A stretch of 53,758 nt of DNA from positions 1-53,758 of the forward strand of contig JABGQL010000076.1 of assembly GCA_018648825.1 (NCBI GenBank), read 5' to 3'. Below, piece after piece: positions 2,851 through 53,758 of the stretch. The notes beneath the pieces were generated by a model. It did not search any database. It was not told where the DNA came from and worked only from the letters and a program-made list of their open reading frames with translations. The stretch's first letter is position 1, and each line of letters begins with the position of its first letter. Source of the stretch: Gammaproteobacteria bacterium (GTDB lineage Bacteria > Pseudomonadota > Gammaproteobacteria > GCF-002020875). A program made the position numbers and the translations under genes.

Positions 2851-3408
2851 ATGAAATTACTACTTATCGGTGGTGTACTGGGTATTATTTTCTGGGGTGG
2901 TTTTAATACCGCAATGGAATTGACCAACAATGAGGCGTTCTGTATCTCTTGTCATGAGATGGAAGAGAATGTCTATCAGGAGTACACAAGTACTATCCAC
3001 TACTCCAACCGTACTGGTGTACGTGCGACCTGTCCAGATTGCCACGTGCCCAAAGAGTGGATCCATAAGGTGATCCGTAAGATTAAGGCTTCCAACGAGG
3101 TCTACCACAAGATTCTGGGTACCATCGATACCCCCGAGAAGTTTGAGGCCAAGCGTATGCAGCTGGCACAGAACGTCTGGAAAACGATGAAAGAGACCGA
3201 CTCCCGCGAGTGTCGTAACTGTCACTCCTTCGAGTTTATGGATTTCGACCGTCAGGAAGAGCGCAGCTCTGATCGTCATGATGAGGCGATTGAGAGTCGT
3301 GACCCAGATAATCCTGAGACACACGGTAATGGCAAGACCTGTATCGACTGCCATAAGGGTATTGCACATAAGCTACCCGAAGGGTATGACCCTTCCGAGG
3401 AGCAGTAA
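2851..3408 (+). CDS. napC: NapC/NirT-family tetraheme cytochrome c quinol dehydrogenase
   Basis: 185 aa with an N-terminal TM helix and four CxxCH motifs (CISCH, CPDCH, CRNCH, CIDCH). Confidence 0.9.
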   Translation: MKLLLIGGVLGIIFWGGFNTAMELTNNEAFCISCHEMEENVYQEYTSTIHYSNRTGVRATCPDCHVPKEWIHKVIRKIKASNEVYHKILGTIDTPEKFEAKRMQLAQNVWKTMKETDSRECRNCHSFEFMDFDRQEERSSDRHDEAIESRDPDNPETHGNGKTCIDCHKGIAHKLPEGYDPSEEQ

Positions 3409-3419
3409 GGATTAGAAGT

Positions 3420-3452
3420 CTCAGTTGACCTTTTTAACAAAGGTCAACTGAG
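3420..3452 (+). other. Perfect 14-bp stem / 5-nt loop hairpin between napC and napG
   Basis: ctcagttgaccttt-ttaac-aaaggtcaactgag. No T-run follows, so it is not a classic terminator. Confidence 0.6.
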
Positions 3453-3528
3453 CAAGTTTGAGAGGAGGGTAACCGACCGACATCCCTGCTATTCTGTTGG
3501 GGTGTCTGCATAGATTAGGAGTGGATCG

Positions 3529-4326
3529 GTGCCACAGAAAAGTAAGCTAGGTCGCAGAGAGTTTCTGACTCAAGGCGGAAAAATGGTCGGCGGGCTCGCC
3601 TTGTTGGGAGCAGCCATTGGTGGATATGGCAAACAGGCGGCATCCATGCCGGCCTATGCACTGCGCCCCCCTGGCGCACTGCCAGAGCAGGACTTCCTCG
3701 GAGCCTGTGTGCGTTGTGGCCTCTGCGTTAAAGATTGCCCCTACGATATTCTTCATCTTGCTGAATGGCAGGAGGAGGTCGCGCTGGGTACTCCCTACTT
3801 TATTGCTCGTGATATCCCGTGTGAGATGTGTGAAGACATCCCCTGTGTACGCAACTGTCCAACCGGAGCGCTAGATCGCGAGATGGAGGATATTGAGCAG
3901 GCAGAGATGGGGGTTGCAGTGCTGGTGGATCAAGAGACCTGCCTCAACATGTTGGGACTGCGTTGCGATATCTGTTATCAGGTCTGTCCGGTGCTGGATA
4001 AGGCGATCACACTGGAGTTGTCGCATAACACCCGTACCAATGTACATGCCAAATTTGAGCCTACAGTCCACTCTGAGCACTGTACGGGCTGTGGCAAGTG
4101 TGAGCATGGCTGTCCGCTACCGATAGCCGCAATTAAAGTGTTGCCGCAAAGTCTGGCGAAGGGGCAGGCAGGAGAGCACTACCGCTTGGGTTGGGAAGAG
4201 AAAGAGGCTGCAGGAGAGGCGCTGGTAGCGCCAGACGTGGCGCATGAGTTTAATCTGCCTGAAGGGTTCCAGTATGACCTGCTCGGTGGTGGTCTCAGTG
4301 GCCCCGGTGTGAAGGGGGGTAAATAG
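3529..4326 (+). CDS. napG: Ferredoxin-type protein NapG (Tat-exported poly-[4Fe-4S])
   Basis: GTG start preceded by AGGAG. It has a twin-arginine signal (RREFL) and four CxxCxxC...CP clusters. Confidence 0.85.
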
Positions 4327-4328
4327 TC

Positions 4329-5168
4329 ATGGCACGACAACCTATTGGTGAGGCGGCTCTGGAACAGAAAGGGTGGTTGCGTAGCAACCTCTGGTTGATT
4401 CTGCGTCGCATTTCACAGCTCTCTATTATCGCCCTGTTTATCTATGCACCGCTGTGGTTGGTGAAGGGAAACCTCGCCTCCAATCTGGTATTGGAGACGG
4501 TGCCGTTGACCGATCCATTCCTCTATCTACAAACGGTTTTTGCAGGGCAAGCCTTTGAGGTGACCGCGCTGATCGGTGCGGCCATTGTGGTGCTCTTCTA
4601 TCTGCTGGTGGGTGGTCGCGCCTACTGCTCTTGGGTCTGCCCAGTGAATGTAGTGACCGACAGTGCGGGTTGGTTGCGGCGTAAATTCAAGATCAAGAAG
4701 AAGTGTGATCTCTCCCCTTCACTGCGTTACTGGGTTTTGGGGCTGGTTATGGTGATCTCCTATTTGGGGGGGAATATGCTGTGGGAGCTGGTTAACCCCG
4801 TGACCCTGTTACAGCGTGGTCTGATCTACGGTATGGGGATGGGGTGGATTGTGGTTGCTGCCATCTTTCTCTACGACCTACTCTGGGCGCGTAATGGCTG
4901 GTGTGGGCACCTCTGTCCGATGGGGGCCTTCTACAGTCTGATTAACCGCTTTAGCTGGTTGCGGGTAAAGGCCAAAAATCGAGAGGGGTGTGATGATTGT
5001 ATGGACTGCTTTGCGGTCTGCCCAGAGCCACAGGTGATTCGTCCTGCGCTCAAGGGTGAGAACGGACACGGCATTGTCATTGATCAGTCGCTCTGTACCA
5101 ACTGCGGCCGCTGTATTGATATTTGTGGGCCGGATGTATTTGCTTACGGCTCTCGTTTTAATAAATAG
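4329..5168 (+). CDS. napH: Membrane quinol dehydrogenase ferredoxin subunit NapH
   Basis: Four TM segments, CxxCP motifs, and two C-terminal 4Fe-4S motifs (CDDCMDCFAVCP, CTNCGRCIDIC). It starts 3 nt after napG. Confidence 0.85.
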   Translation: MARQPIGEAALEQKGWLRSNLWLILRRISQLSIIALFIYAPLWLVKGNLASNLVLETVPLTDPFLYLQTVFAGQAFEVTALIGAAIVVLFYLLVGGRAYCSWVCPVNVVTDSAGWLRRKFKIKKKCDLSPSLRYWVLGLVMVISYLGGNMLWELVNPVTLLQRGLIYGMGMGWIVVAAIFLYDLLWARNGWCGHLCPMGAFYSLINRFSWLRVKAKNREGCDDCMDCFAVCPEPQVIRPALKGENGHGIVIDQSLCTNCGRCIDICGPDVFAYGSRFNK

Positions 5169-5644: not shown

Positions 5645-7735
5645 ATGAACCTTTCTAATCTGAATTTGATGCATAAGATGTTCCTGCTTATTGGAACCGT
5701 ATGTACCCTGTTGATTGTTGTGCTATTGGTCATTTCGACTCAGGTTGGCAATGTGCTTCAATATGTTGAGCAGTCTCAAAATGAGAGTGTCCCCTTTGCT
5801 ATGATGGCCAAAGGGATGGATAAGAGTGTTGTTGAGGTTCAGCAGTGGCTTACTGATATTTCTGCTACACGCGCACTGGATGGCCTGAATGATGGATTTG
5901 ATGAGGCAGAGATATCGAGACAGGGCTTTCTTAAGGGGGCTTCAGATTTTCGAAAAATGTACCAGCTGGAAAGCGATACAACAGCCTTGCAGCGTCTGGA
6001 TGAGTTAGAGCAGGCTTTTGAAGCGTGGTACCAAGCGGGCCAAGAGATGGCAAATGCCTATATTGAAGGTGGGCCTGCTCTGGGTAACCCGCTAATGGGA
6101 GCCTTCGATGAAACGGCTGTTCAGCTCTCAGAGCTGTTAGGCCCCTTTGTAGAGGAGCAGCTAGAAGAGTCTAATGAGATGTTAAATCTCACGCGTCTGG
6201 CTGTGACATCGATGCAAAATACAACCATCTTGATCTTTGTGATGACCATCATCATCGCTATCATTATTGGGCTGTTGATTGCGCGGAACATTGTCTCTTC
6301 TGTACTCAAATTACAAAATGTGATGTCGAAGGTGAGGCACTCCGGTGAGTTCCAGCACCGCGTTGAGTTGTCAGGCCGTGATGAAATTATGCGTATGGGT
6401 CGAGCATTTAATGAGCTGTTAGAAAATATGCAAACAGCGATTCATGAGAGCAATCAGGTTGTTGGTGCTGTTGCTCGTGGAGAGTTTGATAAACGTATGA
6501 CATCAGAGCTGAAAGGTGATTTGAAGATCCTAAAAGAGGGGGTCAATGGCTCAGCAGAAAGTGTTGATTTTATGATGGGTGAGCTGGGTAAGGTGATGGA
6601 TGCCCTGTATAACGGAGATTTTGAGTCGCGGATGGACCATAGAGTTGCGGCAGCATTCCGTGATAAAACGGAAAATGCACTGAATGCGATCAGCGGGACA
6701 ATAGTAGGCATTATTACCGTAATGGAGAAAATGGAGGCTGGAAAATTTCAGCACCGTGTCACAGCCAATGCACGGGGGGACCTGCTCAAGCTAAAAGAGT
6801 GTGTCAACGGATCGATGAATGTGCTTGAAGGGGCGATGAAAGATATTACGGATGTGGTCGTTGCACAGAGTGAAGGGGATTTGACACAAACCATAAACAA
6901 CCACTACCAAGGACAACTCCAGGTACTGAAAGAGGCCATCATCAGCTCGTCAGAGAAGCTAAATGGCACTGTATCTACGATTCTTGAGGTGTCAGACTCT
7001 GTGGCGAGTGCCTCCTCACAAGTATCAGAGGGATCAGAGGATTTGAGCCAGCGGACACATGAGCAATCTACTCTGCTGGAGGAGACCACAGCATCTATGG
7101 AACAGATGACAGCCACGGTGCAACAGAATACTGGTGCGGCACAACAGGCTAACCAGTTGTCACTAAACGCCAGCAGAGCGGCAGAGGCAGGTGCATCTAT
7201 AGCAGGGCAAGCAGTTGAGGCGATGAAAGACATTACCGAATCCAGCCAGAAGATTGGCGACATCATCACCTTGATCGATAGCATCGCCTTTCAAACCAAT
7301 CTTCTTGCACTAAACGCTGCAGTAGAGGCCGCTCGTGCAGGCGAACAAGGGAAAGGCTTTGCAGTGGTTGCAGGGGAGGTACGTGCACTGGCGCAGAAAT
7401 CAGCGGGGGCCTCACGAGATATTAAAGCGTTGATCGAAAATTCTGTATCCACTGTTGATAGGGGGGCTAAGTACGTCTCTGAGACAGGGGGCTCTCTGCA
7501 AGAGATTAACGAGTCGATTCAGAAGGTAAATGAGATTATTTCTGAGATCGCTACGGCAACTGCAGAGCAGGGCAGTGGTATTGAGCAAGTGAATAGCGCC
7601 GTTGCGAATATGGATAAGATGACACAGCAAAACTCCACCTTGGTGGAGGAGACATCAGAGGCTTCACACTCCTTGAGCAGTCAGGCGAACCATTTGAAAG
7701 GGTTGATGGAGTTCTTTGTTACCACGCAACGCTAA
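5645..7735 (+). CDS. Methyl-accepting chemotaxis protein with a poly-HAMP array
   Basis: Two TM helices flank a periplasmic domain of about 160 aa. About five tandem HAMP-like units follow (GEFQHRV..., GEFDKRM..., GDFESRM..., GKFQHRV..., GDLTQTI...). The MA signalling domain is canonical ([37 protein letters not shown]). I chose the start at the internal ATG at 5645. Confidence 0.9.
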
Positions 7736-7741
7736 TAAGCA

Positions 7742-8542
7742 TTACAGGTACTGAGACCAATTCCGCTCCCCTTTTCCAAATACGAAAAAATGCGGGTTGA
7801 GTAGTGAATCCTTGGTGTTGTAGCGTAAGGGCTGCATTGCTGTATCGGTGAGTTGGCCTCCGGCCTCTTCTACGACGCATTGCGCCGCTGCGGTATCCCA
7901 CTCTGAGGTGGGGCCAAGTCGTGGATAGAGGTCGGCTTGCCCCTCAGCCACCAGACAAGATTTTAGTGAGCTTCCCATTGGAAAAATGCGATGGGTCCCA
8001 ATTTTATCAAGAAAATCGGTAATAATTTCACTCTGGTGAGAGCGGCTTCCCGCGACCACCAACTGCTCTTCTGAAGGAGTACGAACATGGATCTGCTCAA
8101 CAGCTTGTTCAGGTAGCCGCTTCCATGCCCCCCCCTCACGCCAAGCGTAGTAGAGGATGCCATTCACAGGTACTTGAATTACTCCAAGGATTGGCTCGTG
8201 ATTCTCAATCAGCGCGATATTAACGGTAAACTCACCGTTGCGTTTGATGAACTCGCGGGTGCCATCCAGTGGATCAATTAACCAGTAGCGTGACCACTGT
8301 TGTCGCTCCTCAAACGGGATCGATGTTGACTCTTCAGAGAGGACGGGGATATTTGGAGTCAGTTTTTCCAACCCTTCAGTGATGGTGTTATGCGCAGCAA
8401 GATCAGCATCGGTGAGTGGGGTGTTGTCCTCTTTGTCGGTGATTGAGAAGCCCGCTTCATAGATCTCCAAAATACTCTTGCCAGCAGACTCTGCCAGTGC
8501 GATTACTGGGGCGATCAGCGCCTCTAATTCAGTTGTGTTCAT
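7742..8542 (-). CDS. cysQ: 3'(2'),5'-bisphosphate nucleotidase CysQ
   Basis: Inositol monophosphatase-fold motifs (WLIDPLDGT, WDTAA). 266 aa. Confidence 0.9.
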   Translation of the reverse strand: MNTTELEALIAPVIALAESAGKSILEIYEAGFSITDKEDNTPLTDADLAAHNTITEGLEKLTPNIPVLSEESTSIPFEERQQWSRYWLIDPLDGTREFIKRNGEFTVNIALIENHEPILGVIQVPVNGILYYAWREGGAWKRLPEQAVEQIHVRTPSEEQLVVAGSRSHQSEIITDFLDKIGTHRIFPMGSSLKSCLVAEGQADLYPRLGPTSEWDTAAAQCVVEEAGGQLTDTAMQPLRYNTKDSLLNPHFFVFGKGERNWSQYL

Positions 8543-9099
8543 TGCTGTTGTCTCTCTCGTACCATAAACAGGGCGGCAATTGAACGTGCCTCCGTCATTT
8601 CAGGGTGGGCCAGTAGTGAGCTGAGTTCGCTCAGCTTCCAGGGGATCACCTCCACCTCTTCTGGTTCATCGCCCTCCAGCCGCTGTTCATAGAGCTCTTC
8701 GCCGAGCACAATATGTGTGGTGTGGCTGAGATAGCCGGGGGCAATGGTGACTGAGTCAAGGTGTGTCAGGCGCTTAGCACCATAGCCCACCTCCTCCATC
8801 ATTTCACGATTGGCGGCATCCAGCGTTGACTCGCCAGGGTCAATTTTCCCTTTCGGCAAGGCCAGCTCATAACGCTCAACACCTGCAGCATATTCACGAA
8901 TGAGCAGCACTGTATCCTCATCCAGCATTGGCACAATCAGCACTGCGCCGCGTGAAGAGCCCTTGAGTCGCTCCCACTGCGCCTCCACGCCATTAGAAAA
9001 GCGTAGGTCAATCGACTCTACGGTAAATAGACGACTTTGGGCGCAGACCTCAGTCTTTAGCACCTGCGGCGGTTTTCTTTCTGGATTCACCCTTTCCAT
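8539..9099 (-). CDS. nudE: NUDIX hydrolase, NudE-like ADP-compound hydrolase
   Basis: 186 aa with a Nudix box (GKIDPGESTLDAANREMMEEVGY). It has a 4-nt overlap with cysQ and is divergent from yrfG, as in enterobacteria. Confidence 0.8.
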   Translation of the reverse strand: MERVNPERKPPQVLKTEVCAQSRLFTVESIDLRFSNGVEAQWERLKGSSRGAVLIVPMLDEDTVLLIREYAAGVERYELALPKGKIDPGESTLDAANREMMEEVGYGAKRLTHLDSVTIAPGYLSHTTHIVLGEELYEQRLEGDEPEEVEVIPWKLSELSSLLAHPEMTEARSIAALFMVRERQQQ

Positions 9100-9118
9100 A
9101 GCGGTATCCTACCGCACT

Positions 9119-9781
9119 ATGGTCGATTGGTCACAAATCAAAACCGTTCTCCTCGATATGGACGGTACGCTGCTGGATCTTCATTTCGATAACCATTTTT
9201 GGTTAGAGCATGTGCCGATGCGCTATGCAGAGAAGAATGCGCTCTCACTGGATGTAGCGAAAGAGGAGCTGTTCAACCGCTACAAGGCGATTGAGGGGAC
9301 CATTGAATGGTATTGCGTTGACCACTGGAGCAGAGAGTTGGAGCTGGATATAGTCCAACTCAAAGAGGAGGTCCACCACCTGATCGCCGAGCATCCCCAT
9401 GTGCGAGATTTTTTGGATGCAGTACGTCAGTCGGGGCGACGTGCGGTGCTGGTAACCAACGCTCATGGGAAAAGTCTTGACCTGAAGATGCGTAAAACAG
9501 AGCTTGGCCCCTATCTCGATGCCACACTCTGCTCGCATGACTTTGGTCTGCCCAAAGAGCAGCCACAGTTCTGGGAGAAGTTGCAGGGCGCAGAAACATA
9601 CGATCCAGCGACGACCTTACTGGTGGATGATAGCCTTAATGTGCTGCGCTCTGCGCAGACCTATGGCATTCAACACCTGTTGGCGGTGCATCAGCCGGAT
9701 ACGAAAAACCCTCCGAAAGATGTAGAGGGCTTTGAAGCGATTCACCACTTCAAAGAGCTGCTGCCGATACCTCCACTATAA
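9119..9781 (+). CDS. yrfG: HAD-family hydrolase, YrfG-like GMP/IMP nucleotidase
   Basis: The DMDGTL HAD motif I sits right after the internal ATG at 9119. The longer ORF from 8900 overlaps nudE and has no coding character. Confidence 0.8.
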   Translation: MVDWSQIKTVLLDMDGTLLDLHFDNHFWLEHVPMRYAEKNALSLDVAKEELFNRYKAIEGTIEWYCVDHWSRELELDIVQLKEEVHHLIAEHPHVRDFLDAVRQSGRRAVLVTNAHGKSLDLKMRKTELGPYLDATLCSHDFGLPKEQPQFWEKLQGAETYDPATTLLVDDSLNVLRSAQTYGIQHLLAVHQPDTKNPPKDVEGFEAIHHFKELLPIPPL

Positions 9782-9818
9782 AAGGTATCTCTATTGTTTG
9801 TGTAAGCGGCACAGCGTG

Positions 9819-9977
9819 CTATCTCGAATCGATCATCTCCACTCGACCACTCACTCTGGCGGACCTCTCTTCAAAAGTGCCTGATGTTGAAGACATGAGC
9901 TGAGAAAACAGAAATACCAGTCCAATCAACAGGATGACCCAGATAAGAGGGGGGATATCTTTAGCATAGTAGTTCAT
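9819..9977 (-). CDS. Possible 52-aa single-TM small protein (below the ORF-track cutoff)
   Basis: MNYYAKDIPPLIWVILLIGLVFLFSQLMSS..., with a GAGG sequence 8 nt upstream of the ATG. It lies in the AT-rich gap. Confidence 0.25.
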   Translation of the reverse strand: MNYYAKDIPPLIWVILLIGLVFLFSQLMSSTSGTFEERSARVSGRVEMIDSR

Positions 9978-10233
9978 AGGTATACCTCGATTTTTATGCT
10001 CCCTCTATCCTGATACTAGGTGAACTTACTTAAAACTCAAGTGGGGAAGCGTTGATGTTCGATCGGCTCCAGATGTTTGTCTACTCAAAAACGATTAATA
10101 TATCCATTCCTGATCAATATGTTTGAAGCCAAGGTTGTTGTTTGAACCTGTATATAGAGCTGTTTGGCTGTGATTTTTTAAGCGCAGCAACATGAATGAT
10201 GAATCCATACACTGAAATCAAAAGGCTTAAAGA

Positions 10234-10653
10234 ATGAATGCCACCGTAATAACCGCGACTCTAGTTTTAGCGCTATCTTTCACAATAACGTTTGATGAGG
10301 CCCACAGTGTCACCCCAGAGCCCCCTGCCGTTGTTGTTGAGGGTTCAATACCGAACAGCCTTGAAGAGGTGTCGATCAAGGGGGGTAGTGATCAAGAGGG
10401 GGAGTCAAACGCCACTGGTTCACAAAAAGGGTATGCCTATATCCACTTCTCTGTATTCGGTTTTGAAAGATCGTTAACCGATCTCGCATCAAAATTAACG
10501 CTGGAGATTGACTACAAAGTGGTTGAGGATGGATGGTTTCAAGACAAAGCTGAGTACACTGTAACGGGCAAAGTTGTGGATATAGAGAAGTTCTACAGCA
10601 CGATCCAACCTTATTCTGAGAAATTTCAGCTAGAGAAAGAGCCGCTAAACTAA
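10234..10653 (+). CDS. Hypothetical secreted protein (139 aa)
   Basis: Hydrophobic N-terminal signal-like segment. No motif recognised. It lies in an AT-rich intergenic islet. Confidence 0.5.
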   Translation: MNATVITATLVLALSFTITFDEAHSVTPEPPAVVVEGSIPNSLEEVSIKGGSDQEGESNATGSQKGYAYIHFSVFGFERSLTDLASKLTLEIDYKVVEDGWFQDKAEYTVTGKVVDIEKFYSTIQPYSEKFQLEKEPLN

Positions 10654-45559: not shown

Positions 45560-46087
45560 GTGATGAAAGAGCTGATTATCGGAGGCATTCGTTCGGGTAA
45601 AAGTCGCTATGCGGAGCAGGTTGCGCGGACGAATCAGAATCTACAAGGGCATCAGCTCTGCTATCTGGCGACGGCAACGGCTGGTGATGCAGAGATGGAG
45701 GCGCGTATCAGCCACCATCAACAGCAGCGTGGTCAAGGGTGGTTGTTGGTTGAGGAGCCGATCACACTGGCTTTAACGCTACAGCGAGAGGCAGAAGAGG
45801 GGCGTACGATTTTGGTAGAGTGTCTCACCCTCTGGCTGACCAATCTATTGATGGCAGAAGATGAACTGCAGCTTAGAGGTGAGCAGGAGCAGTTGCTGGA
45901 GCTGTTGCCCACCCTACCTGGTTCTATACTGTTGGTGAGTAATGAGACGGGGCTGGGAGTGGTACCAATGGACCCGCTCAGTCGTCGTTTTTGTGATGAG
46001 GCGGGGCGACTGCATCAGCACTTGGCAGAGCTTTGTGAACGGGCCACTTGGGTGGTTGCAGGGTTGCCGCAACGGATTAAGGGATAA
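45560..46087 (+). CDS. cobU: Adenosylcobinamide kinase / adenosylcobinamide-phosphate guanylyltransferase
   Basis: P-loop (GGIRSGKS). 175 aa. Confidence 0.9.
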   Translation: MMKELIIGGIRSGKSRYAEQVARTNQNLQGHQLCYLATATAGDAEMEARISHHQQQRGQGWLLVEEPITLALTLQREAEEGRTILVECLTLWLTNLLMAEDELQLRGEQEQLLELLPTLPGSILLVSNETGLGVVPMDPLSRRFCDEAGRLHQHLAELCERATWVVAGLPQRIKG

Positions 46088-46093
46088 TCAAAG

Positions 46094-47143
46094 ATGATGA
46101 AAAATTGGTGGAGTGATCCCATCTCAGCGCTGGACCAACAGGCCGCAGAGCAGGCTTCGGCGCGTCAAGCTGAGTTAACCAAGCCGCCCAGATCATTGGG
46201 GCGACTGGAGTCGGTGGCGATCCAGCTGGCCTCCATGCAGGGGGTTGAGTCTCCTGTTGTTGAGCAGGTGTGGATTACGATCTTTGCTGCAGATCATGGT
46301 GTGGCCAGCTTGGGGGTCTCTGCCTTTCCGCAGGATGTGACGGCTGAGATGGTGCGTAACTTCTCACGTGGTGGTGCGGCCATCGCGGTTTTGGCTAAGC
46401 AGTTGGGAGCGACACTGGAGGTGGTTAATGTGGGTACAGTGAGTGCGATTGAGCCACTGCCGCAGGTGCTCGATGCACGGGTGGCTGCGGGAACGCGCAG
46501 CTTTGTTAGCGATGCTGCGATGGACCATTCCCACTTGGAGCAGGCGATGGCTGTAGGGCGTGATGCTGTGATGCGCGCGCAACAGGCGGGCGCTGATCTC
46601 TATATCGGTGGGGAGATGGGGATTGGCAACAGTACGGCTGCGGCGGCAGTAGCGGCTGCACTGTTAAAGCAGGAGGGTAGAGTGGTTGCGGGTGTTGGTA
46701 CTGGAGTTGATGTGGATGGGGTCAGCCATAAAAGTGAGGTGATTCAACAGGCGCTCGATTTTCATCATGACTACCTGAATGATCCACTTGAGGTACTACG
46801 TCGACTAGGTGGGTTTGAGGTTGCGGCGTTGAGTGGTAGCTATATTGCGGCTGCACAGCAGCGGTTGCCGATACTGGTTGATGGCTTTATCAGCTCAGTG
46901 GCGGCACTGCTGGCGACCCGTATTCAGCCAGATGCTCGACAGTGGATGCTGTTTTCACACCGCTCTGCAGAGCAGGGCCATCAACGTGTACTGGAGGCGA
47001 TGCAGGCAGAGCCGTTGCTAGACTTGGGGATGCGTCTGGGTGAAGGGAGTGGAGCCGCTGTTGCACTGCCGTTGCTGCAGCAGGCGTGCCAGCTACATCG
47101 AGAGATGGCTACCTTTGCGGAAGCCAGTGTCTCCCAAGCATGA
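46094..47143 (+). CDS. cobT: Nicotinate-nucleotide--dimethylbenzimidazole phosphoribosyltransferase
   Basis: CobT family blocks (GEMGIGNST, LGEGSGA). Confidence 0.9.
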   Translation: MMKNWWSDPISALDQQAAEQASARQAELTKPPRSLGRLESVAIQLASMQGVESPVVEQVWITIFAADHGVASLGVSAFPQDVTAEMVRNFSRGGAAIAVLAKQLGATLEVVNVGTVSAIEPLPQVLDARVAAGTRSFVSDAAMDHSHLEQAMAVGRDAVMRAQQAGADLYIGGEMGIGNSTAAAAVAAALLKQEGRVVAGVGTGVDVDGVSHKSEVIQQALDFHHDYLNDPLEVLRRLGGFEVAALSGSYIAAAQQRLPILVDGFISSVAALLATRIQPDARQWMLFSHRSAEQGHQRVLEAMQAEPLLDLGMRLGEGSGAAVALPLLQQACQLHREMATFAEASVSQA

Positions 47144-47175
47144 CCCCAGAATGATGGGTAATTGAGGCAGACACC

Positions 47176-47901
47176 ATGCAGCCACTGATTATCGCCTTCC
47201 AGCTACTGACTCGTATTCCAATTCCTGTAGCGGTTGATCATACGCCCTATAACCAAGGGCACTCCATGCTCTTCTATCCGCTGGTGGGCGCGGTGATTGG
47301 GGCGGTGTTGATGCTGTTTGGCGCACTGCTGGAGACGCAGCCTGCGGTGGTGCAGGCCGCACTGCTGTTGAGTATTTGGGTCGGGCTTACGGGTGCGCTG
47401 CACCTAGATGGGTTGGCGGATAGCGCAGACGGCTGGGTAGGGGGCATGGGGGACCGTAAACGCATACTAGAGATTATGAAAGACCCCAGTGCGGGTCCCA
47501 TGGGGGTGACTGCAATTGTGCTGGTGTTGCTGCTGAAGTGGAGTGCAGTGGTGGCACTGATTGAGAGTGATACACTGCTACTGCTCTTCTGGTCCCCGGT
47601 ACTGGCGCGACTGTTGTTGATTTCGTTGTTTCAAACCACCCCCTATCTACGGGCAGGGGGGATGGGAGAAGATCTATCACGTAATATTCCGCAATGGAAA
47701 GCCTACGCTGTTCAGCTGTTGGTGTTTGGGCTGGCGCTCTATTTTGGTGTTCACTGGGCGTTGTTGCTGCTCTATATCTCGATTGCATTTCTGTTCCGTC
47801 TGCTGGTGTTACAGCAGTTGGGCGGGATTACAGGGGATGTGGCGGGGGCGATGGTGGAGAAGATGGAGCTGCTGTTTGTTCTGCTCTGTGTATTGCTGTG
47901 A
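47176..47901 (+). CDS. cobS: Adenosylcobinamide-GDP ribazoletransferase (cobalamin synthase)
   Basis: 241-aa polytopic membrane protein with the LHLDGLAD motif. Confidence 0.88.
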   Translation: MQPLIIAFQLLTRIPIPVAVDHTPYNQGHSMLFYPLVGAVIGAVLMLFGALLETQPAVVQAALLLSIWVGLTGALHLDGLADSADGWVGGMGDRKRILEIMKDPSAGPMGVTAIVLVLLLKWSAVVALIESDTLLLLFWSPVLARLLLISLFQTTPYLRAGGMGEDLSRNIPQWKAYAVQLLVFGLALYFGVHWALLLLYISIAFLFRLLVLQQLGGITGDVAGAMVEKMELLFVLLCVLL

Positions 47902-47941
47902 TTTGGGGTGAGGGTCGATACTGCCAATACTTATGAGATGA

Positions 47942-49402
47942 CTAATATTTCACATCAGAAAATAGCTGCTCCAGCTGCAGGTGCTGCTCCAGCGTATCTG
48001 CCAGCCGCTCTAGGCTCGCTTCGCGCAGCTGCTCCAGATCAACCCGTTGTGCTTGTTCCAGTCCGGCCCACTGCAGCAGCGCCTGCAAACTCTCTGGGTG
48101 GTCAAACAACCCATGTAGATAGCTACCGATCACCTGCTTATCTATGGAGACTGCCCCATCCATACTTCCATCTTCTAGCGATACCAGTGGGTGCTCTAGT
48201 GCAGCGCCTGTGGTGATGCCTGCATGAATCTCATATCCACGTACTGCGGCCTGCTGTAGTGTGAGTTGACCAGAGATATTTCTGAGCTGTTTCTCTGGCT
48301 CCAGTCGGGTGGTGATCTTCAGTAGCCCCAATCCTAGAGTGCTACCGGCTCTGCCCTCAATACCGTCTGGGTCATCAATACGCTCTCCCAACATCTGAAA
48401 GCCACCGCAGATCCCTACCACTTTTCCACCATAGCGCAGGTGGCGTTGAATGGCTGACTCCCACCCTTGACTACGCAGCCACTCCAGGTCTGCACAGCTG
48501 TTTTTACTGCCGGGTAGGATGATCAGATCTGCAGCAGGTGGAGGGCTATTGGGAGCGATGATCTGCAGGTCTACCTGAGGGTGGTGGCGTAGTGGATCAA
48601 GATCGGTGTGGTTGCTGATACGTGGCAGTGCTGGAACAATAATCTTGAGTGAAGCCTCTGGATTGATGACCGTTTGTTGAGGTAGTGCATCCTCTGCATC
48701 TAGGTGAAGCCCATGCAGATAGGGGAGCACCCCAATTACGGGCTTACCGGTGCGAGCCTCTAGCCAATCTAGACCTGACTGCAGCAAGCTGATGTCACCA
48801 CGAAAGCGGTTGATGATAAAACCGACAATCCGATCCTGTTCACTTTGAGATAACAGCTCTAGTGTCCCTACCAGATGGGCAAAGACCCCGCCACGGTCAA
48901 TATCGGCGACCAAGACCACGGGGCAGTCTACCGCCTCGGCAAACCCCATGTTGGCAATGTCACGGTCTCGCAGATTGATCTCTGCAGGGCTGCCCGCCCC
49001 CTCTACCATCACGGCCTGATACTGTTGTTGCAGGCGTTGGTAGGCACCTACCACCTCGTTCAGCAGTTTGGGCTTGAGCTGATGATAGCTGCCTGCATCT
49101 CGATTCCCCAGCGCCTTGCCATGTAAAATCACCTGTGCGCCGATATCTGTAGTCGGCTTCAACAGAATGGGGTTCATATCGGTGGTGGCCTCTACCCCGG
49201 CGGCAATGGCTTGCAGCGCTTGCGCCCGACCAATCTCGCCGCCATCGACGGTTACCGCGCTGTTCAGTGCCATGTTCTGCGGCTTAAAGGGGGCAACTGT
49301 GATGCCTTTGCGGTGTAGCAAGCGGCACAGCCCTGCGGTGATGACACTTTTACCGGCATCTGAGGTGGTGCCTTGAATCATTAAGGTGAATTTCATATCC
49401 AA
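47942..49402 (-). CDS. cobQ: Cobyric acid synthase
   Basis: CobQ/CbiP N-terminal ATPase domain (GTTSDAGKS) and a C-terminal GATase domain (ICGGFQMLG). Confidence 0.92.
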
Positions 49403-49417
49403 CCATTATACGATGGG

Positions 49418-50350
49418 GTGATGATTGAGACCGCAACCATTGTCACCTTGGCACTACTGCTTGACCGTCTGCTGGGTGAGTTAAAACAGTTCCATCCACT
49501 GGTTGGTTTTGGGCGTGTGGCACACCGTGTAGAGTTGATCCTGTTTCGGGGAGAGCCTGCAGCACCGCGTCCGTGTGGGGTGATTGGCTGGATTGCAATG
49601 ATCCTGCCTGTGCTCTTTTTAGGGTTGCTGCTGGCACACCTACAAGGGTGGGTACTGTTTACTGCTGAGGTTCTTGGGCTGTACTTGGTGGTTGGTGGTC
49701 AGAGTTTGAGTAGCCATGCACACGCGGTCAGTGCTGCACTGCAGCAAGAGGATCTACCCCAAGCGCAGCAAGCGGTTGGTTGCATTGTAAGTCGACAGAC
49801 GGATGCGCTGAATGCGCAAGGGGTCGCCAAAGCGGCAACTGAGTCTGTGCTGGAGAACGGTAGTGATGCCATTTTTGGAGCGCTATTTTGGTTTCTGTTG
49901 TTGGGGCTGCCGGGGGTGTTGCTCTACCGTGCTATCAATACACTGGATGCGATGTGGGGCTATAAAACTCCACGCTATATCGATTTTGGCTGGTTCAGTG
50001 CGCGGGTTGATGATTGGGTGAACTGGATTCCCGCACGTTTGAGTGCACTCAGTTATGCCTTGTTGGGCCATTGGCGTAGTGCAATTTACAGTTGGCGTAC
50101 ACAGGCCAAATTATGTAAAAGTCCAAATGCTGGCGTGGTGATGTCGACGGGTGCAGGGGCGCTACAGATTGAGTTGGGTGGGGAGGCGCACTATAACGGT
50201 AAGCGCGAGCAGAAGCCGCTGCTGGGGTGTGGTGATCCAGCTCAAGGCAGGGATATTTCTCGTGCTATTCAGCTGGTTCAACAGAGTCAGCTTCTTTGGC
50301 TGGTGGTGCTCTGGTGCACGGCGCTATTGCAGAGAATAATTTATGGGTAA
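49418..50350 (+). CDS. cbiB: Adenosylcobinamide-phosphate synthase
   Basis: CbiB/CobD membrane protein family (ENGSDAI, SPNAG motifs). Confidence 0.9.
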   Translation: MMIETATIVTLALLLDRLLGELKQFHPLVGFGRVAHRVELILFRGEPAAPRPCGVIGWIAMILPVLFLGLLLAHLQGWVLFTAEVLGLYLVVGGQSLSSHAHAVSAALQQEDLPQAQQAVGCIVSRQTDALNAQGVAKAATESVLENGSDAIFGALFWFLLLGLPGVLLYRAINTLDAMWGYKTPRYIDFGWFSARVDDWVNWIPARLSALSYALLGHWRSAIYSWRTQAKLCKSPNAGVVMSTGAGALQIELGGEAHYNGKREQKPLLGCGDPAQGRDISRAIQLVQQSQLLWLVVLWCTALLQRIIYG

Positions 50351-51353
50351 TCAACCAATCCACGGTGGAGCACGACGCTACTGGGCGCAACGCTACGGTT
50401 TTTCAGAGGGTGAAATGGTTGATCTCTCGACGGGTATTAACCCCAATGGTTGGCCTGTGCCATCTCTTCCAGAGCGGGTTTGGCAGCGACTGCCTGAAGA
50501 GAGCCCTACGTTGATCGCGGCTGCAGAAAATTATTTCGGTTGTGATGGGTTACTTCCTGTGGCTGGATCACAAGCGGCTATACAGGTACTGCCGCAGCTA
50601 CGCTCTCATAGCCGAGTGGGTGTATTGGCTCCTGCCTACTATGAGCATCAGAAAGGGTGGGAGGTAGCGGGTCATCAAGTGGTGGCGTTGGATGCGGCAG
50701 AGATTGAATCGGAGCTGCCGGAGCTGGATGTGCTGGTGGTGGTTAACCCCAATAATCCCACAGCAGCACGGTTCCCCACAGAGCGCCTGCTGCACTGGCA
50801 CCAACAGCTTTCAGATCGAGGGGGTTGGTTGGTTGTTGATGAGGCCTTCATGGATACGAATCCGGAGCAGAGTCTTTGTAGAGAGGGTGAACCGCGTAGT
50901 GGGTTGGTTGTTTTACGTTCGATGGGTAAGTTTTTTGGTCTGGCTGGGATACGGGTTGGTTTTGTCCATGCGACAGCGTCGCTACTGCAGCGGTTGCAAG
51001 AAAAGCTTGGTCCTTGGTCGGTGAGTCATCCTGCCCAGTGGGTTGCAGAGCAGGCGCTGCAGGACCATCTCTGGCAGCAGCAGACTCGTCATACATTGCT
51101 TAAGTCAGAAGAGCGGCTGTATAAACTATTGGAGACAAGCGGGTTTAAGCCCCGTGGAGGTACGGCACTGTTTCAATGGGTGGAGAGTGCTGATGCCGCA
51201 GAGATTATGGATCAACTGGCACAACGGGGGATTCTGGTCCGTTACTTTCAACGGCCAGCATCACTACGTTTTGGATTGCCCGCTAATGAACAAGAGTGGC
51301 AGCAGTTAGCGCAGGCACTACAGCAGTGTGCTCGATTGGGGCAGGTTGCATGA
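50343..51353 (+). CDS. cobD: Threonine-phosphate decarboxylase (class I/II aminotransferase fold)
   Basis: PLP-enzyme blocks (NPNNPT, SMGKFFGLAGIRVG). Overlaps cbiB in the cob cluster context. Confidence 0.85.
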   Translation: MGNQPIHGGARRYWAQRYGFSEGEMVDLSTGINPNGWPVPSLPERVWQRLPEESPTLIAAAENYFGCDGLLPVAGSQAAIQVLPQLRSHSRVGVLAPAYYEHQKGWEVAGHQVVALDAAEIESELPELDVLVVVNPNNPTAARFPTERLLHWHQQLSDRGGWLVVDEAFMDTNPEQSLCREGEPRSGLVVLRSMGKFFGLAGIRVGFVHATASLLQRLQEKLGPWSVSHPAQWVAEQALQDHLWQQQTRHTLLKSEERLYKLLETSGFKPRGGTALFQWVESADAAEIMDQLAQRGILVRYFQRPASLRFGLPANEQEWQQLAQALQQCARLGQVA

Positions 51354-52291
51354 GTCCAGTTATCAACTGCAGAATTGGTATTGATCTTGGGGGTACCAAG
51401 ATTGAGGCTATCGTAATAGATCGTGAAGGGCGAGAGTTGCAGCGGCAACGGGTCGCAACGCCACAAGGCCAGTACCGGGCTACGCTGGAGGCGATTGTAG
51501 GGCTGGTTGCAGCGGTAGAGCAGCAGAGCGGCCTTTACGGCTCTGTGGGTATCGGTATTCCTGGAACGATCTCACCCGCAACCGGGCTGGTGAAGAATGC
51601 CAACTCCACGGCCCTGATTGGTCACCCGCTCGACCAAGACCTGCAGACATTGTTACAGCGCCCCGTGCGCATTGCCAATGATGCCAACTGTTTTGCCCTC
51701 TCGGAGGCGACCGATGGCGCAGCTGCAGGGGCGAATATCGTCTTTGGGGTGATTTTGGGTACAGGAGTGGGTGGTGGTGCCGTTATCAATAGTAGAGTGC
51801 TGGTTGGTGCCAATGCCATTGGTGGTGAGTGGGGGCACAACCCCCTGCCATGGATGCAAGCCGATGAGCTGCTGGGACCAGTGTGCTATTGTGGAAAAAA
51901 AGGGTGTATAGAGACATTTCTCTCTGGATCTGGCTTGCAGATGAGTTATTATCAAAAAACAGGGGTTGAGATCTCTGCTGAAGAGATCGCAATCCGCTCA
52001 CAACAAGGAGAGCAGGATGCAACTGACAGCATGGAGCAGTATGAAGATCGACTGGCACGAGGGCTTGCAACCGTGATTAATCTAATTGACCCTGATGTGA
52101 TCGTTCTTGGTGGAGGGCTGTCGAATATTGATCGCCTCTACCCGCATACCAAAAACCTCTGGGGTGAGTACGTCTTCTCTGATGAGGTGCGCACTGAGCT
52201 GGTTAAGGCGCAGTTTGGAGACTCTAGCGGCGTTCGTGGTGCCGCTTGGCTCTGGTCCGATAAAGAGATCTGGGGAGGCCAGTCTCAGTGA
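51350..52291 (+). CDS. ROK-family sugar kinase (NagK/Mak-like)
   Basis: DLGGTK ATP-binding motif, ROK signature (NDANCFALSE) and a zinc motif (CYCGKKGCIE). The ATG at 51350 overlaps the cobD stop. Confidence 0.85.
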   Translation: MSPVINCRIGIDLGGTKIEAIVIDREGRELQRQRVATPQGQYRATLEAIVGLVAAVEQQSGLYGSVGIGIPGTISPATGLVKNANSTALIGHPLDQDLQTLLQRPVRIANDANCFALSEATDGAAAGANIVFGVILGTGVGGGAVINSRVLVGANAIGGEWGHNPLPWMQADELLGPVCYCGKKGCIETFLSGSGLQMSYYQKTGVEISAEEIAIRSQQGEQDATDSMEQYEDRLARGLATVINLIDPDVIVLGGGLSNIDRLYPHTKNLWGEYVFSDEVRTELVKAQFGDSSGVRGAAWLWSDKEIWGGQSQ

Positions 52292-52623
52292 GTGGGCAGG
52301 CGCTGAGCAGTCTGGATCAGCTCAGCCAACAGCTTACACAGCACCCCGGTCTATTGCTCTACTTCAGTACCCCGCAGTGCAATGTCTGCAAGGTACTGCG
52401 CCCTAAGTTAGAGGCGCTATTTGAAGAGCACTATCCTGAAATCAAAAACTGTTATGTTGATACCACGGTAACGCCAGAGATCTCTGGTCAGTACAGCGTG
52501 TTTGCCGTGCCGACCATTATTCTGTTTTTGGATGGTAAAGAGTTTGTGCGTAAGTCACGTAATTTTAGCCCTATTGAGCTAATTGAAGAGGTGCGCCGAC
52601 CTTGGGAAATTATGCACTCCTGA
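52288..52623 (+). CDS. Thioredoxin-family protein
   Basis: CxxC (CNVC) in a thioredoxin-fold context (VPTIILF). GTG start overlaps the kinase stop. Confidence 0.75.
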   Translation: MSGQALSSLDQLSQQLTQHPGLLLYFSTPQCNVCKVLRPKLEALFEEHYPEIKNCYVDTTVTPEISGQYSVFAVPTIILFLDGKEFVRKSRNFSPIELIEEVRRPWEIMHS

Positions 52624-52643
52624 TGATGCCCTTTATTAGAGGG

Positions 52644-53624
52644 TTATAAATCAAGAGGGCTCACTACGCCGCGACCGCCACGATTTAGAACATGGGTATA
52701 GATCATCGTAGTATTCAGATCTTTATGCCCCAGTAGCTCCTGTACGGTGCGAATATCATAGCCAGCCTGCAGTAGATGAGTTGCGAAAGAGTGGCGCAGC
52801 ACGTGGGGTGTGCATGGTTTTACAATGTTAGCCTGCTTAGCAGCAGAGCGCACGGCACGTTGCACGCTGGATTCGTTAATATGGTGCCGTCTCAGCTTAT
52901 CTGAACGTGGATCGCGAGACAGCAGAGGGGATGGAAAGAGGTATTGCCAACCCCAAGCTTTATCAGTATTGGGGTATTTGTTCGCAAGTGCGTTGGGTAG
53001 GTAAACATGACCGAAACCCTTTTCAAGATCGCGGTTATGAAGTGCTTGAGCTTTTTCCATCTGGCTTTTGATGGGTAGAATCAAATTTTCAGGTAAAACT
53101 GTGATACGGTCTTTATTACCTTTGCCTTCCCGAACAATAATCTCACGACGATCAAACTCAATATCCTTGACGCGTAACCGAAGCCCTTCCAGTAGGCGCA
53201 TTCCCGTTCCATACAGCAGGCTGGTAATCAACCACATAGCCCCTGATAGTTCTCCGAGTAGCTGACGTGCCTCATGTTGTGTTAATACGATTGGCAGTCG
53301 TTTTGCAGTTTTTGCCATCACGATCTCTTCCAGCCATGGAAGATCAATGTCTAGAACCTCTCGATAGAGAAAAAGGAGCGCAGCCTTTGCTTGATTTTGA
53401 GTGGATGCAGAGACCTTACGTTCAATTGCTAGCCATGTCAGAAATTGCTCTACTTCACGTGCCCCCATTTCACTTGGATGGCGTTTGTTGTGGAAAAGAA
53501 TAAAGCGACGAGCCCAGTCAACATAGGCGCTTTCAGTGCGTATGCTGTAATGCTTTAGCCGGATACGATTACGTACTAGGTCGAGAAGTTTTGGTTTTTT
53601 TGAAAGGGAATCTTGATAAGTCAT
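52644..53624 (-). CDS. intI: Integron integrase IntI (tyrosine recombinase)
   Basis: R...HxxR...Y catalytic residues ([33 protein letters not shown]). It also has the IntI-specific insertion ([40 protein letters not shown]). Confidence 0.92.
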
Positions 53625-53650
53625 ACACAAAAATTTAGGCCGCCTAAGTA

Positions 53651-53670
53651 ATGTTACATTTTTGTAACAT
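53651..53670. promoter_or_regulatory. Perfect palindrome in the intI upstream / attI-side region
   Basis: atgttaca-tttt-tgtaacat, 27 nt upstream of the intI ATG. Confidence 0.5.
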
Positions 53671-53703
53671 ACTGTATTTTAATGATTTATGTATCATATC
53701 ATC

Positions 53704-53732
53704 TTGACTTGGTAGGAGGCAAGAGGTAGTCT
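53704..53732 (+). promoter_or_regulatory. Candidate outward (cassette-directed) promoter
   Basis: TTGACT, 17-nt spacer, TAGTCT. The -10 element is weak. Confidence 0.25.
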
Positions 53733-53750
53733 GAGTGTTGTATAAATAGC

Positions 53751-53757
53751 GTTAGGT
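53751..53757 (+). other. Candidate attI core site (GTTRRRY), at the window edge
   Basis: GTTAGGT lies about 125 nt from the intI start, on the side where attI is expected. Confidence 0.3.
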
Positions 53758-53758
53758 T

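Follow-up and report, generated by a model that had tools for sequence, protein, structure and literature searches.

The chromosomal (super)integron of Vibrio cholerae has an integrase gene (intI, encoding IntIA, also named IntI4) that is divergent from a co-oriented array of cassettes, among which toxin-antitoxin cassettes are frequent. Its attC sites are homogeneous VCR repeats, which form hairpins with an R box, an unpaired spacer, an L box and bulged bases. Class 1 integrons, with the integrase IntI1, are found in a Tn402/tni or plasmid context and carry resistance genes as cassettes. Chromosomal integrons of Shewanella are interrupted by insertion sequences (ISs), among them the IS91-like ISShvi3, which adjoins an attC (PMC9229058). 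We examined a stretch of 53,758 nucleotides (nt), contig JABGQL010000076.1 of assembly GCA_018648825.1 (hereafter the window), whose last gene, at 52644-53624 on the minus strand, is an intI. We conclude with high confidence that a chromosomal integron of an uncultured marine gammaproteobacterium has its integrase end at this locus. It is probably a working but ordinary chromosomal integron, with nothing in it to surprise an integron specialist, although population data document it unusually well, and it adds a validated platform from such an organism, comprising intI, a family of attC sites and an attI located to the nucleotide.

The integrase and its relatives

The open reading frame (ORF) of intI spans 52644-53630 on the minus strand. 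Its likely start is the ATG at 53624, which gives the form of 326 amino acids (aa) that is annotated in public assemblies; translation could also begin at a TTG two codons upstream (53630). By exact protein look-up, the 326-aa product was called in 247 blocks of public assemblies. The NCBIfam integron integrase model, TIGR02249, matched the protein with 480.5 bits against a cutoff of 265, in one stretch covering model positions 1-313 of 315. The best match among solved structures was PDB 2A3V, the V. cholerae integrase IntIA/IntI4 (VchIntIA), with an E-value of 8.5e-93, and residues 16-325 aligned with residues 8-318 of 2A3V with a single one-residue gap. The additional segment that is specific to IntI proteins (approximately residues 188-248, encoded at 52881-53063 on the minus strand) was colinear with VchIntIA apart from a single one-residue gap, with the motifs ALANKYPN at residue 212, WGWQYLFPS at residue 224 and RRHH at residue 245. 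The catalytic set R143, K168, H274, R277, H300 and Y309 was intact. By the offsets of the 2A3V alignment, these residues correspond to VchIntIA positions 135, 160, 267, 270, 293 and 302, which we take to be its catalytic residues. In end-to-end alignment, catalytic residues and the IntI-specific patch, the protein is thus like the V. cholerae enzyme.

The Pfam domains of the protein, Phage_int_SAM_4 (a SAM-like N-terminal domain) and Phage_integrase (the catalytic domain), are common to all Xer-like recombinases, and the XerC, XerD and XerA models gave significant E-values. Both observations would fit a generic tyrosine recombinase of XerC/XerD or phage type, in which case a GTTAGGT near the end of the window would be a chance 7-mer. 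However, the Xer models reached 139-181 bits (XerC and XerD 139-142, with cutoffs of ~330), far below their cutoffs of 220-335 and in two split stretches, whereas the integron integrase model scored far above its own. The IntI-specific patch aligned to VchIntIA without loss, and an IS-borne Xer-like recombinase that served as an internal control (30% identical to IntI; described in the last section) is without exactly that patch, residues ~188-247. Furthermore, it is precisely at the GTT of the 7-mer that related contigs diverge and cassettes are joined, as described in the next section. The model scores, the 2A3V alignment, the attI divergence and the cassette junctions together refute the XerC/XerD-type reading, whose probability we put at practically nil. 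Because the Xer models fell far below their cutoffs, the patch is kept and the junctions lie exactly at the core GTT, the product is, by its sequence, an integron integrase and not a recombinase of the XerC/D type. An initial annotation, made from the letters of the window alone, had reached the same identification from the extra segment.

The closest plasmid-borne integrase was IntI1, with 57% identity over 95% of the protein, and all plasmid matches were below 60%. Model NF011946, which is labelled just 'integron integrase' and which we take to be the class 1 integrase model, gave 391.7 bits, below its equivalog cutoff of 435. Judged from these comparisons, IntI falls in none of the mobile integron classes. 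The locus shares family, architecture and the GTTRRRY core of attI and attC with class 1 integrons but differs from them in the NF011946 score, in the absence of a Tn402/tni or plasmid context and in its cassettes, which are not resistance genes.

The attI junction, attC sites and cassettes

Only 128-134 nt of the window lie beyond the intI start codon. The junction was examined in seven contigs with an intI identical to that of the window: six obtained by exact look-up of IntI in public assemblies (L001-L006, from five ENA samples and one NCBI metagenome-assembled genome, MAG) and a JGI contig (L106) that matches 4 kb of the window with 99.4% identity. In all seven, the 131 nt upstream of the ATG are also identical to the window. 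Identity runs to ...AGCGTTAG / ...ATAAATAGCGTTAG, after which five different sequences follow: GTTAGGCTAATAAG in L001, GTTAGGTTTCCAG in L002 and L004, GTTAGCTGGAAC in L003, GTTAGGGCTAAAA in L005 and GTTAGGCTGGACGG in L106. The divergence begins exactly after GTTAG in every related contig. L006 stops at the same base as the window, GTTAGGTT. GTTAGGT alone is a mere 7-mer, and its meaning comes from this comparison. Since the seven contigs diverge there into five sequences, GTTAGGT at 53751-53757 on the plus strand, which leaves a single base to the end of the window, is by this evidence the attI core. Cassettes join there at G|TT, and the crossover separates G53751 from T53752. The initial annotation had proposed this heptamer as a core site and had placed attI and any cassettes above 53630, with any novel content probably beginning just outside the window; both proposals agree with the comparison, as attC-bounded cassettes were present in other assemblies of the same population.

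The window stops at attI because assemblies branch there, with strains carrying different first cassettes. A contig end at this point had been listed beforehand as a result that would speak against an integron. The break is real but, being caused by cassette heterogeneity at attI, it supports one. A contig that ends a few bases past a GTTRRRY beside intI is thus a sign that strains differ in their cassettes and not that an array is absent. We also considered whether the integron of the window's own genome might be empty or degenerate, consisting of intI and attI only, with the cassettes belonging to other strains. The window is consistent with this in having no cassette and only 7 nt after the crossover. 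However, those 7 nt (TTAGGTT, 53752-53758 on the plus strand) are the same as the start of the GTPase-pair cassette that comes first in L002 and L004, all six longer contigs with an intI identical to the window's carry cassettes, and strain heterogeneity would itself end a contig exactly at the branch point. We therefore regard an empty integron as highly improbable. The window's own first cassette is probably the two-gene GTPase cassette, 7 nt being too few for certainty.

For attC sites, which the initial annotation had proposed to look for beyond attI, we combined the pattern RYYYAAC...GTTRRRY and inspection with a covariance model (R1) subsequently built from nine sites (alignment A1). Sites of this pattern were found directly after the cassette ORFs in the related contigs. 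The nine aligned sites showed 7-bp R boxes, an unpaired spacer and an L-box stem, with compensatory changes at 15 of the 24 predicted pairs. R1 found no attC site in the 53.7-kb window; in the related and JGI contigs it gave 36 matches at E<=1e-3, comprising 33 distinct sequences, which come from many samples and are not attributable to one array. In the alignment of the 33, which was fitted to R1 and so somewhat favours these figures, 90.7% of cells were paired compared to 25-38% with the partners slid, and 175 double-sided changes were counted compared to 58 in shuffles. The bottom strands folded significantly better than shuffled sequences (z = -3.9 to -6.2). Their folds comprise a stem formed by the R boxes, an unpaired spacer and an L stem in which single-base bulges are confined to one arm, which is the asymmetry expected of attC sites. 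In the 58-nt attC at L002 851-908, the sole site mapped base by base, the bulges were a T and a G. The sites therefore have the R''/L''...L'/R' structure that had been anticipated, and their hairpins are like those of V. cholerae in R box, unpaired spacer, L box and bulged bases.

Cassette ORFs in the related contigs were co-oriented, divergent from intI and spaced 0.7-2 kb apart, and each cassette ended in an attC. Their guanine-plus-cytosine (GC) content was 0.34-0.38 (~0.35), compared to 0.52 for the window. From attI, the L001 array comprises a 361-aa protein, a 288-aa protein, a GmrSD type IV restriction enzyme and proteins of 90 and 179 aa, and ends in an IS. In L002, attI is followed by cassette C (two GTPases, weakly LeoA/LeoBC-like), cassette D (Gp49/HigB-like plus HTH_37) and the IS, and in L106 by cassette A (HicA plus HicB), cassette D and the IS. 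L117 begins within an array and runs from an attC through A, B (an APH-like kinase, a 102-aa protein and HEPN), C and D to the IS, while the L003 array starts at attI with BrnT plus a CopG-like protein, then a small ion channel, and continues. In one contig each, cassettes A and C directly adjoin attI; in another, each is preceded by an attC. After the attC of cassette A, L106 continues with the TTAGGC of cassette D and L117 with the TTAGCA of cassette B, and all cassette junctions fall at G|TTAG, that is, at the GTT of the core. As read from these contigs, shared cassettes in different orders are the signature of insertion at attI by IntI and of attC x attC excision; their occurrence in metagenomes is direct evidence of both processes in nature.

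We infer from this modularity that IntI is currently active. As we envisage it, the IntI-specific extra segment would let the enzyme bind folded, single-stranded attC hairpins. IntI would recombine the attC bottom strand with double-stranded attI, cutting at G|TT of GTTAGGT (53751|53752), and new cassettes would thus enter directly beside intI. Recombination of attC with attC would excise or reshuffle cassettes. The array of the window would begin at 53752 and run off the contig, and co-existing strains with different first cassettes would break short-read assemblies at attI.

The cassette content is typical of chromosomal integrons, with toxin-antitoxin pairs, GmrSD, a dynamin-like GTPase pair and several uncharacterised proteins. 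It fits, and does not challenge, the current view that integrons act as reservoirs for modules of defence and addiction. Frequent toxin-antitoxin cassettes, a chromosomal location and an intI divergent from a co-oriented array are likenesses to the V. cholerae (super)integron. The GmrSD-type, methyl-directed type IV restriction enzyme is a single-gene cassette (L001 1025-2947, minus strand; PADLOC mREase_IV, 721 bits) and, on the strength of this match, is an anti-phage defence gene carried by the integron. The paired small GTPases (MMR_HSR1; L002 914-2491, minus strand, also in L004 and L117) are weakly similar to the dynamin-like LeoA/LeoBC defence proteins. The 361-, 288-, 90- and 179-aa proteins of L001 are encoded on the minus strand at 4070-5155, 3072-3938, 635-907 and 95-634, respectively; no Pfam family was found in any of these four, and there was one marginal PADLOC match among them.

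The region upstream of intI and the chromosomal context

Two perfect 6+6 palindromes lie upstream of the intI start codon, where the initial annotation had noted one. They are themselves weak evidence, as 12% of 134-nt shuffles give at least two such repeats. TTTAGGC-C-GCCTAAG (53634-53648), read from the sequence, is situated between the candidate intI promoter (Pint) and the ATG. Its arms are two inverted integron core half-sites (TTAGGC / GCCTAA), and it is kept with one change in L007, a relative whose IntI is 85% identical. It may be a putative binding site of IntI or of another regulator. The second palindrome, TGTTAC-N6-GTAACA (53652-53669), is placed like an operator, downstream of the -10 element of candidate Pint; only its GTAACAT half keeps its position in L007. 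A CRP box was considered for this palindrome and dropped, its spacing being off the CRP consensus spacing with which it was compared. A LexA box was likewise dropped as the identity of the intI-promoter palindrome, as no CTGT-N8-ACAG match was found.

Candidate Pint (53693-53722, minus strand) consists of a TTGCCT -35 element, an 18-nt spacer and a TG-extended -10 element, TATGAT. It was the sole sigma-70-like match in 53300-53758, where 1.2 would be expected by chance, so the match says little by itself; its -10 element and surroundings are conserved in L007. On the opposite strand, TTGACT (53704-53709), 17 nt and TAGTCT form a promoter-like element directed outward (53704-53732, plus strand) that could be the cassette promoter (Pc). 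The TTGACTTGG block of this element is conserved in L007. Of the outward promoter proposed earlier, TTGACT is present, but the -10 element is poor and the promoter scan made no call. Toxin-antitoxin pairs usually bring their own promoters.

The remainder of the window consists of chromosomal housekeeping genes, in agreement with an earlier description of the left-hand neighbours of intI as core metabolism. Genes for a periplasmic nitrate reductase (nap), an amino-acid ABC transporter, UvrD, biotin synthesis (bio), IspB, PurD/PurH, DusB, a P-type ATPase of 949 aa (with no record in the assembly look-up), NadE and BamD-RluD-YfiH are present, and intI is adjoined by cobalamin (cob) genes and by those for NadC, a pilus ATPase, a GGDEF sensor and Trx/ROK. 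No tRNA, transposase, tni/tnp, rep, mob or plasmid gene was found in the 53.7-kb window. As the window is housekeeping DNA without transposase or plasmid genes, the integron is chromosomal.

A mobile integron, on a transposon, plasmid or integrative element, might merely have been binned with chromosomal DNA. Consistent with this, the GC content of intI (0.46) is 8 points under that of its flanks, the location of the integron is not kept in its closest relative, L007, and IS elements are abundant around the arrays. However, intI and over 50 kb of housekeeping genes form one contiguous sequence, in which no transposase, tni/tnp, rep, mob or tRNA gene occurs, and the same Trx/ROK/cob junction with intI was seen in every independent assembly (L001-L006). 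The best plasmid IntI is only 57% identical, and the NF011946 score lies below its cutoff. Neither near-identity to a class integrase nor a transposon or plasmid context, the two marks of the mobile classes, was found, and we consider a mobile integron very unlikely.

L007 is the closest GTDB representative, a MAG labelled Piscirickettsiaceae, and its contig too stops ~100 nt upstream of its intI start codon. Across 80 related loci, Trx/ROK/cob neighbours were found in none. The GC content of intI is intermediate, below that of the cob/ROK flanks and above that of the cassettes (0.35). Because intI GC is below that of the flanks and the neighbours differ in L007, the integron platform may have been acquired horizontally.

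Several observations weigh against our main reading of the locus as a chromosomal integron. The window holds 7 nt beyond the crossover, and the array is deduced from other assemblies of the same population. The visible arrays are short (2-5 cassettes), each contig being ended by an IS91-family insertion, whereas a superintegron-type array has tens of cassettes. The sigma-70 scan of 53300-53758 found no convincing Pc. There was also no LexA box of the gammaproteobacterial consensus CTGT-N8-ACAG, such as overlaps the intI promoter in SOS-regulated integron integrases, the best match in 53600-53758 having 3 mismatches in 8 positions; in lacking a recognised LexA box the locus is unlike V. cholerae. 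It is also unlike V. cholerae in that its attC sites are not a homogeneous VCR-like repeat: they are heterogeneous, 58-136 nt in length and with 51% mean column identity in A1, and their conserved parts are limited to the R boxes and portions of the L boxes. Within 52400-53600, GC is 0.46-0.475, compared to ~0.54 in the flanks (0.53-0.58 for cob/ROK; 46000-52400). Finally, L007, which is closest by IntI alone, has unrelated intI neighbours. The initial annotation had suggested a sedentary chromosomal integron. The chromosomal part of this suggestion stands, with no transposon or plasmid genes found. For the sedentary part, attC identity falls short of the ~80% that homogeneous sites of that type exceed, the GC content differs, and the locus, judged on the L007 neighbours, is not shared with the closest relative by IntI, as it would be under vertical inheritance.

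An IS91-family element at attC sites

L001 and L002 end in a shared sequence that starts right after the R'' box CCTAAC. A 24-mer from this shared end matched 50 JGI contigs (L087-L136), mostly at contig ends. The sequence proved to be the end of an IS91-family element of ~2.48 kb, with a full copy in L112 (1077-~3556) and ends in L001 (1-93), L002 (1-135), L106 and L117. The element encodes a Y2 HUH transposase, with matches to PF04986 Y2_Tnp (144 bits) and PF14319 Zn_Tnp_IS91 (76 bits; an N-terminal zinc ribbon), which overlaps a Xer-like tyrosine recombinase. This transposase, its zinc ribbon and the tetranucleotide 3' of which the element inserts are features of the IS91 family. Plasmid relatives of the transposase are at most 41% identical and are annotated 'IS91 family transposase | site-specific integrase'. 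We also considered whether the shared end might be an attC, long and conserved, or belong to a group IIC-attC intron or to an IS1111-type element with a structured RNA. These candidates were dropped, as the full copy encodes the Y2 transposase and the tyrosine recombinase, and Rfam gave no group II intron RNA or other structured RNA in the shared end sequence. Insertions of the element explain where the visible array contigs break.

The distinct left flanks of the element, 37 of 37, end in NAAC, mostly TAAC, and 14 fit RYYYAAC; most have a cassette-like low GC content. In many different attC sites, the insertion point of the element lay immediately 3' of the R'' ...TAAC. For 18 insertion sites, an attC was found upstream on the same contig at cassette-like distances, and attC matches were co-oriented with the IS in 37 of 38 cases. 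R' has an identical CCTAAC on its opposite strand, but no insertion of the element was seen there. At its left end the element has GTTAGAT, which resembles R', and at its right end GTCCAAC, which resembles R''. In L112, the IS is followed by the remainder of the attC that it interrupts; the terminal GTCCAAC of the IS replaces R'', and R1 scored a complete attC with 72.5 bits. Because its ends are R'- and R''-like, the element rebuilds the split attC and could be carried along within a cassette.

IS1111-attC elements and group IIC-attC introns are known attC-targeting parasites. The present element is like them in its orientation-specific insertion into the attC sites of cassette arrays and unlike them in having a Y2 HUH (IS91) transposase and a Xer-like recombinase, with no DEDD transposase or reverse transcriptase. 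That it represents a third class of dedicated, orientation-specific attC parasites is a tentative proposal, and one that we think somewhat doubtful. As in Shewanella (PMC9229058), a marine gammaproteobacterial chromosomal integron has been invaded by an IS91-family element that abuts attC. The present case differs from that description in that the IS lies directly 3' of the R'' TAAC in many attC sites and always in one orientation.

Two further forms of the element were observed. In L131, positions 5837-10400 hold a copy interrupted by IS1380, followed by IS1595-, IS3- and IS66-like genes, an IS pile-up in the same population; the IS1380 transposase was at first considered part of the element but was dropped as a separate IS nested inside it. 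L093 (~1060-1270) has the same left flank as L126 and L131; at this one insertion site some contigs carry the full IS, L093 only its first ~150 nt, ending in ...GTACAAC. This short form could be a miniature derivative, a product of premature termination or an assembly collapse.

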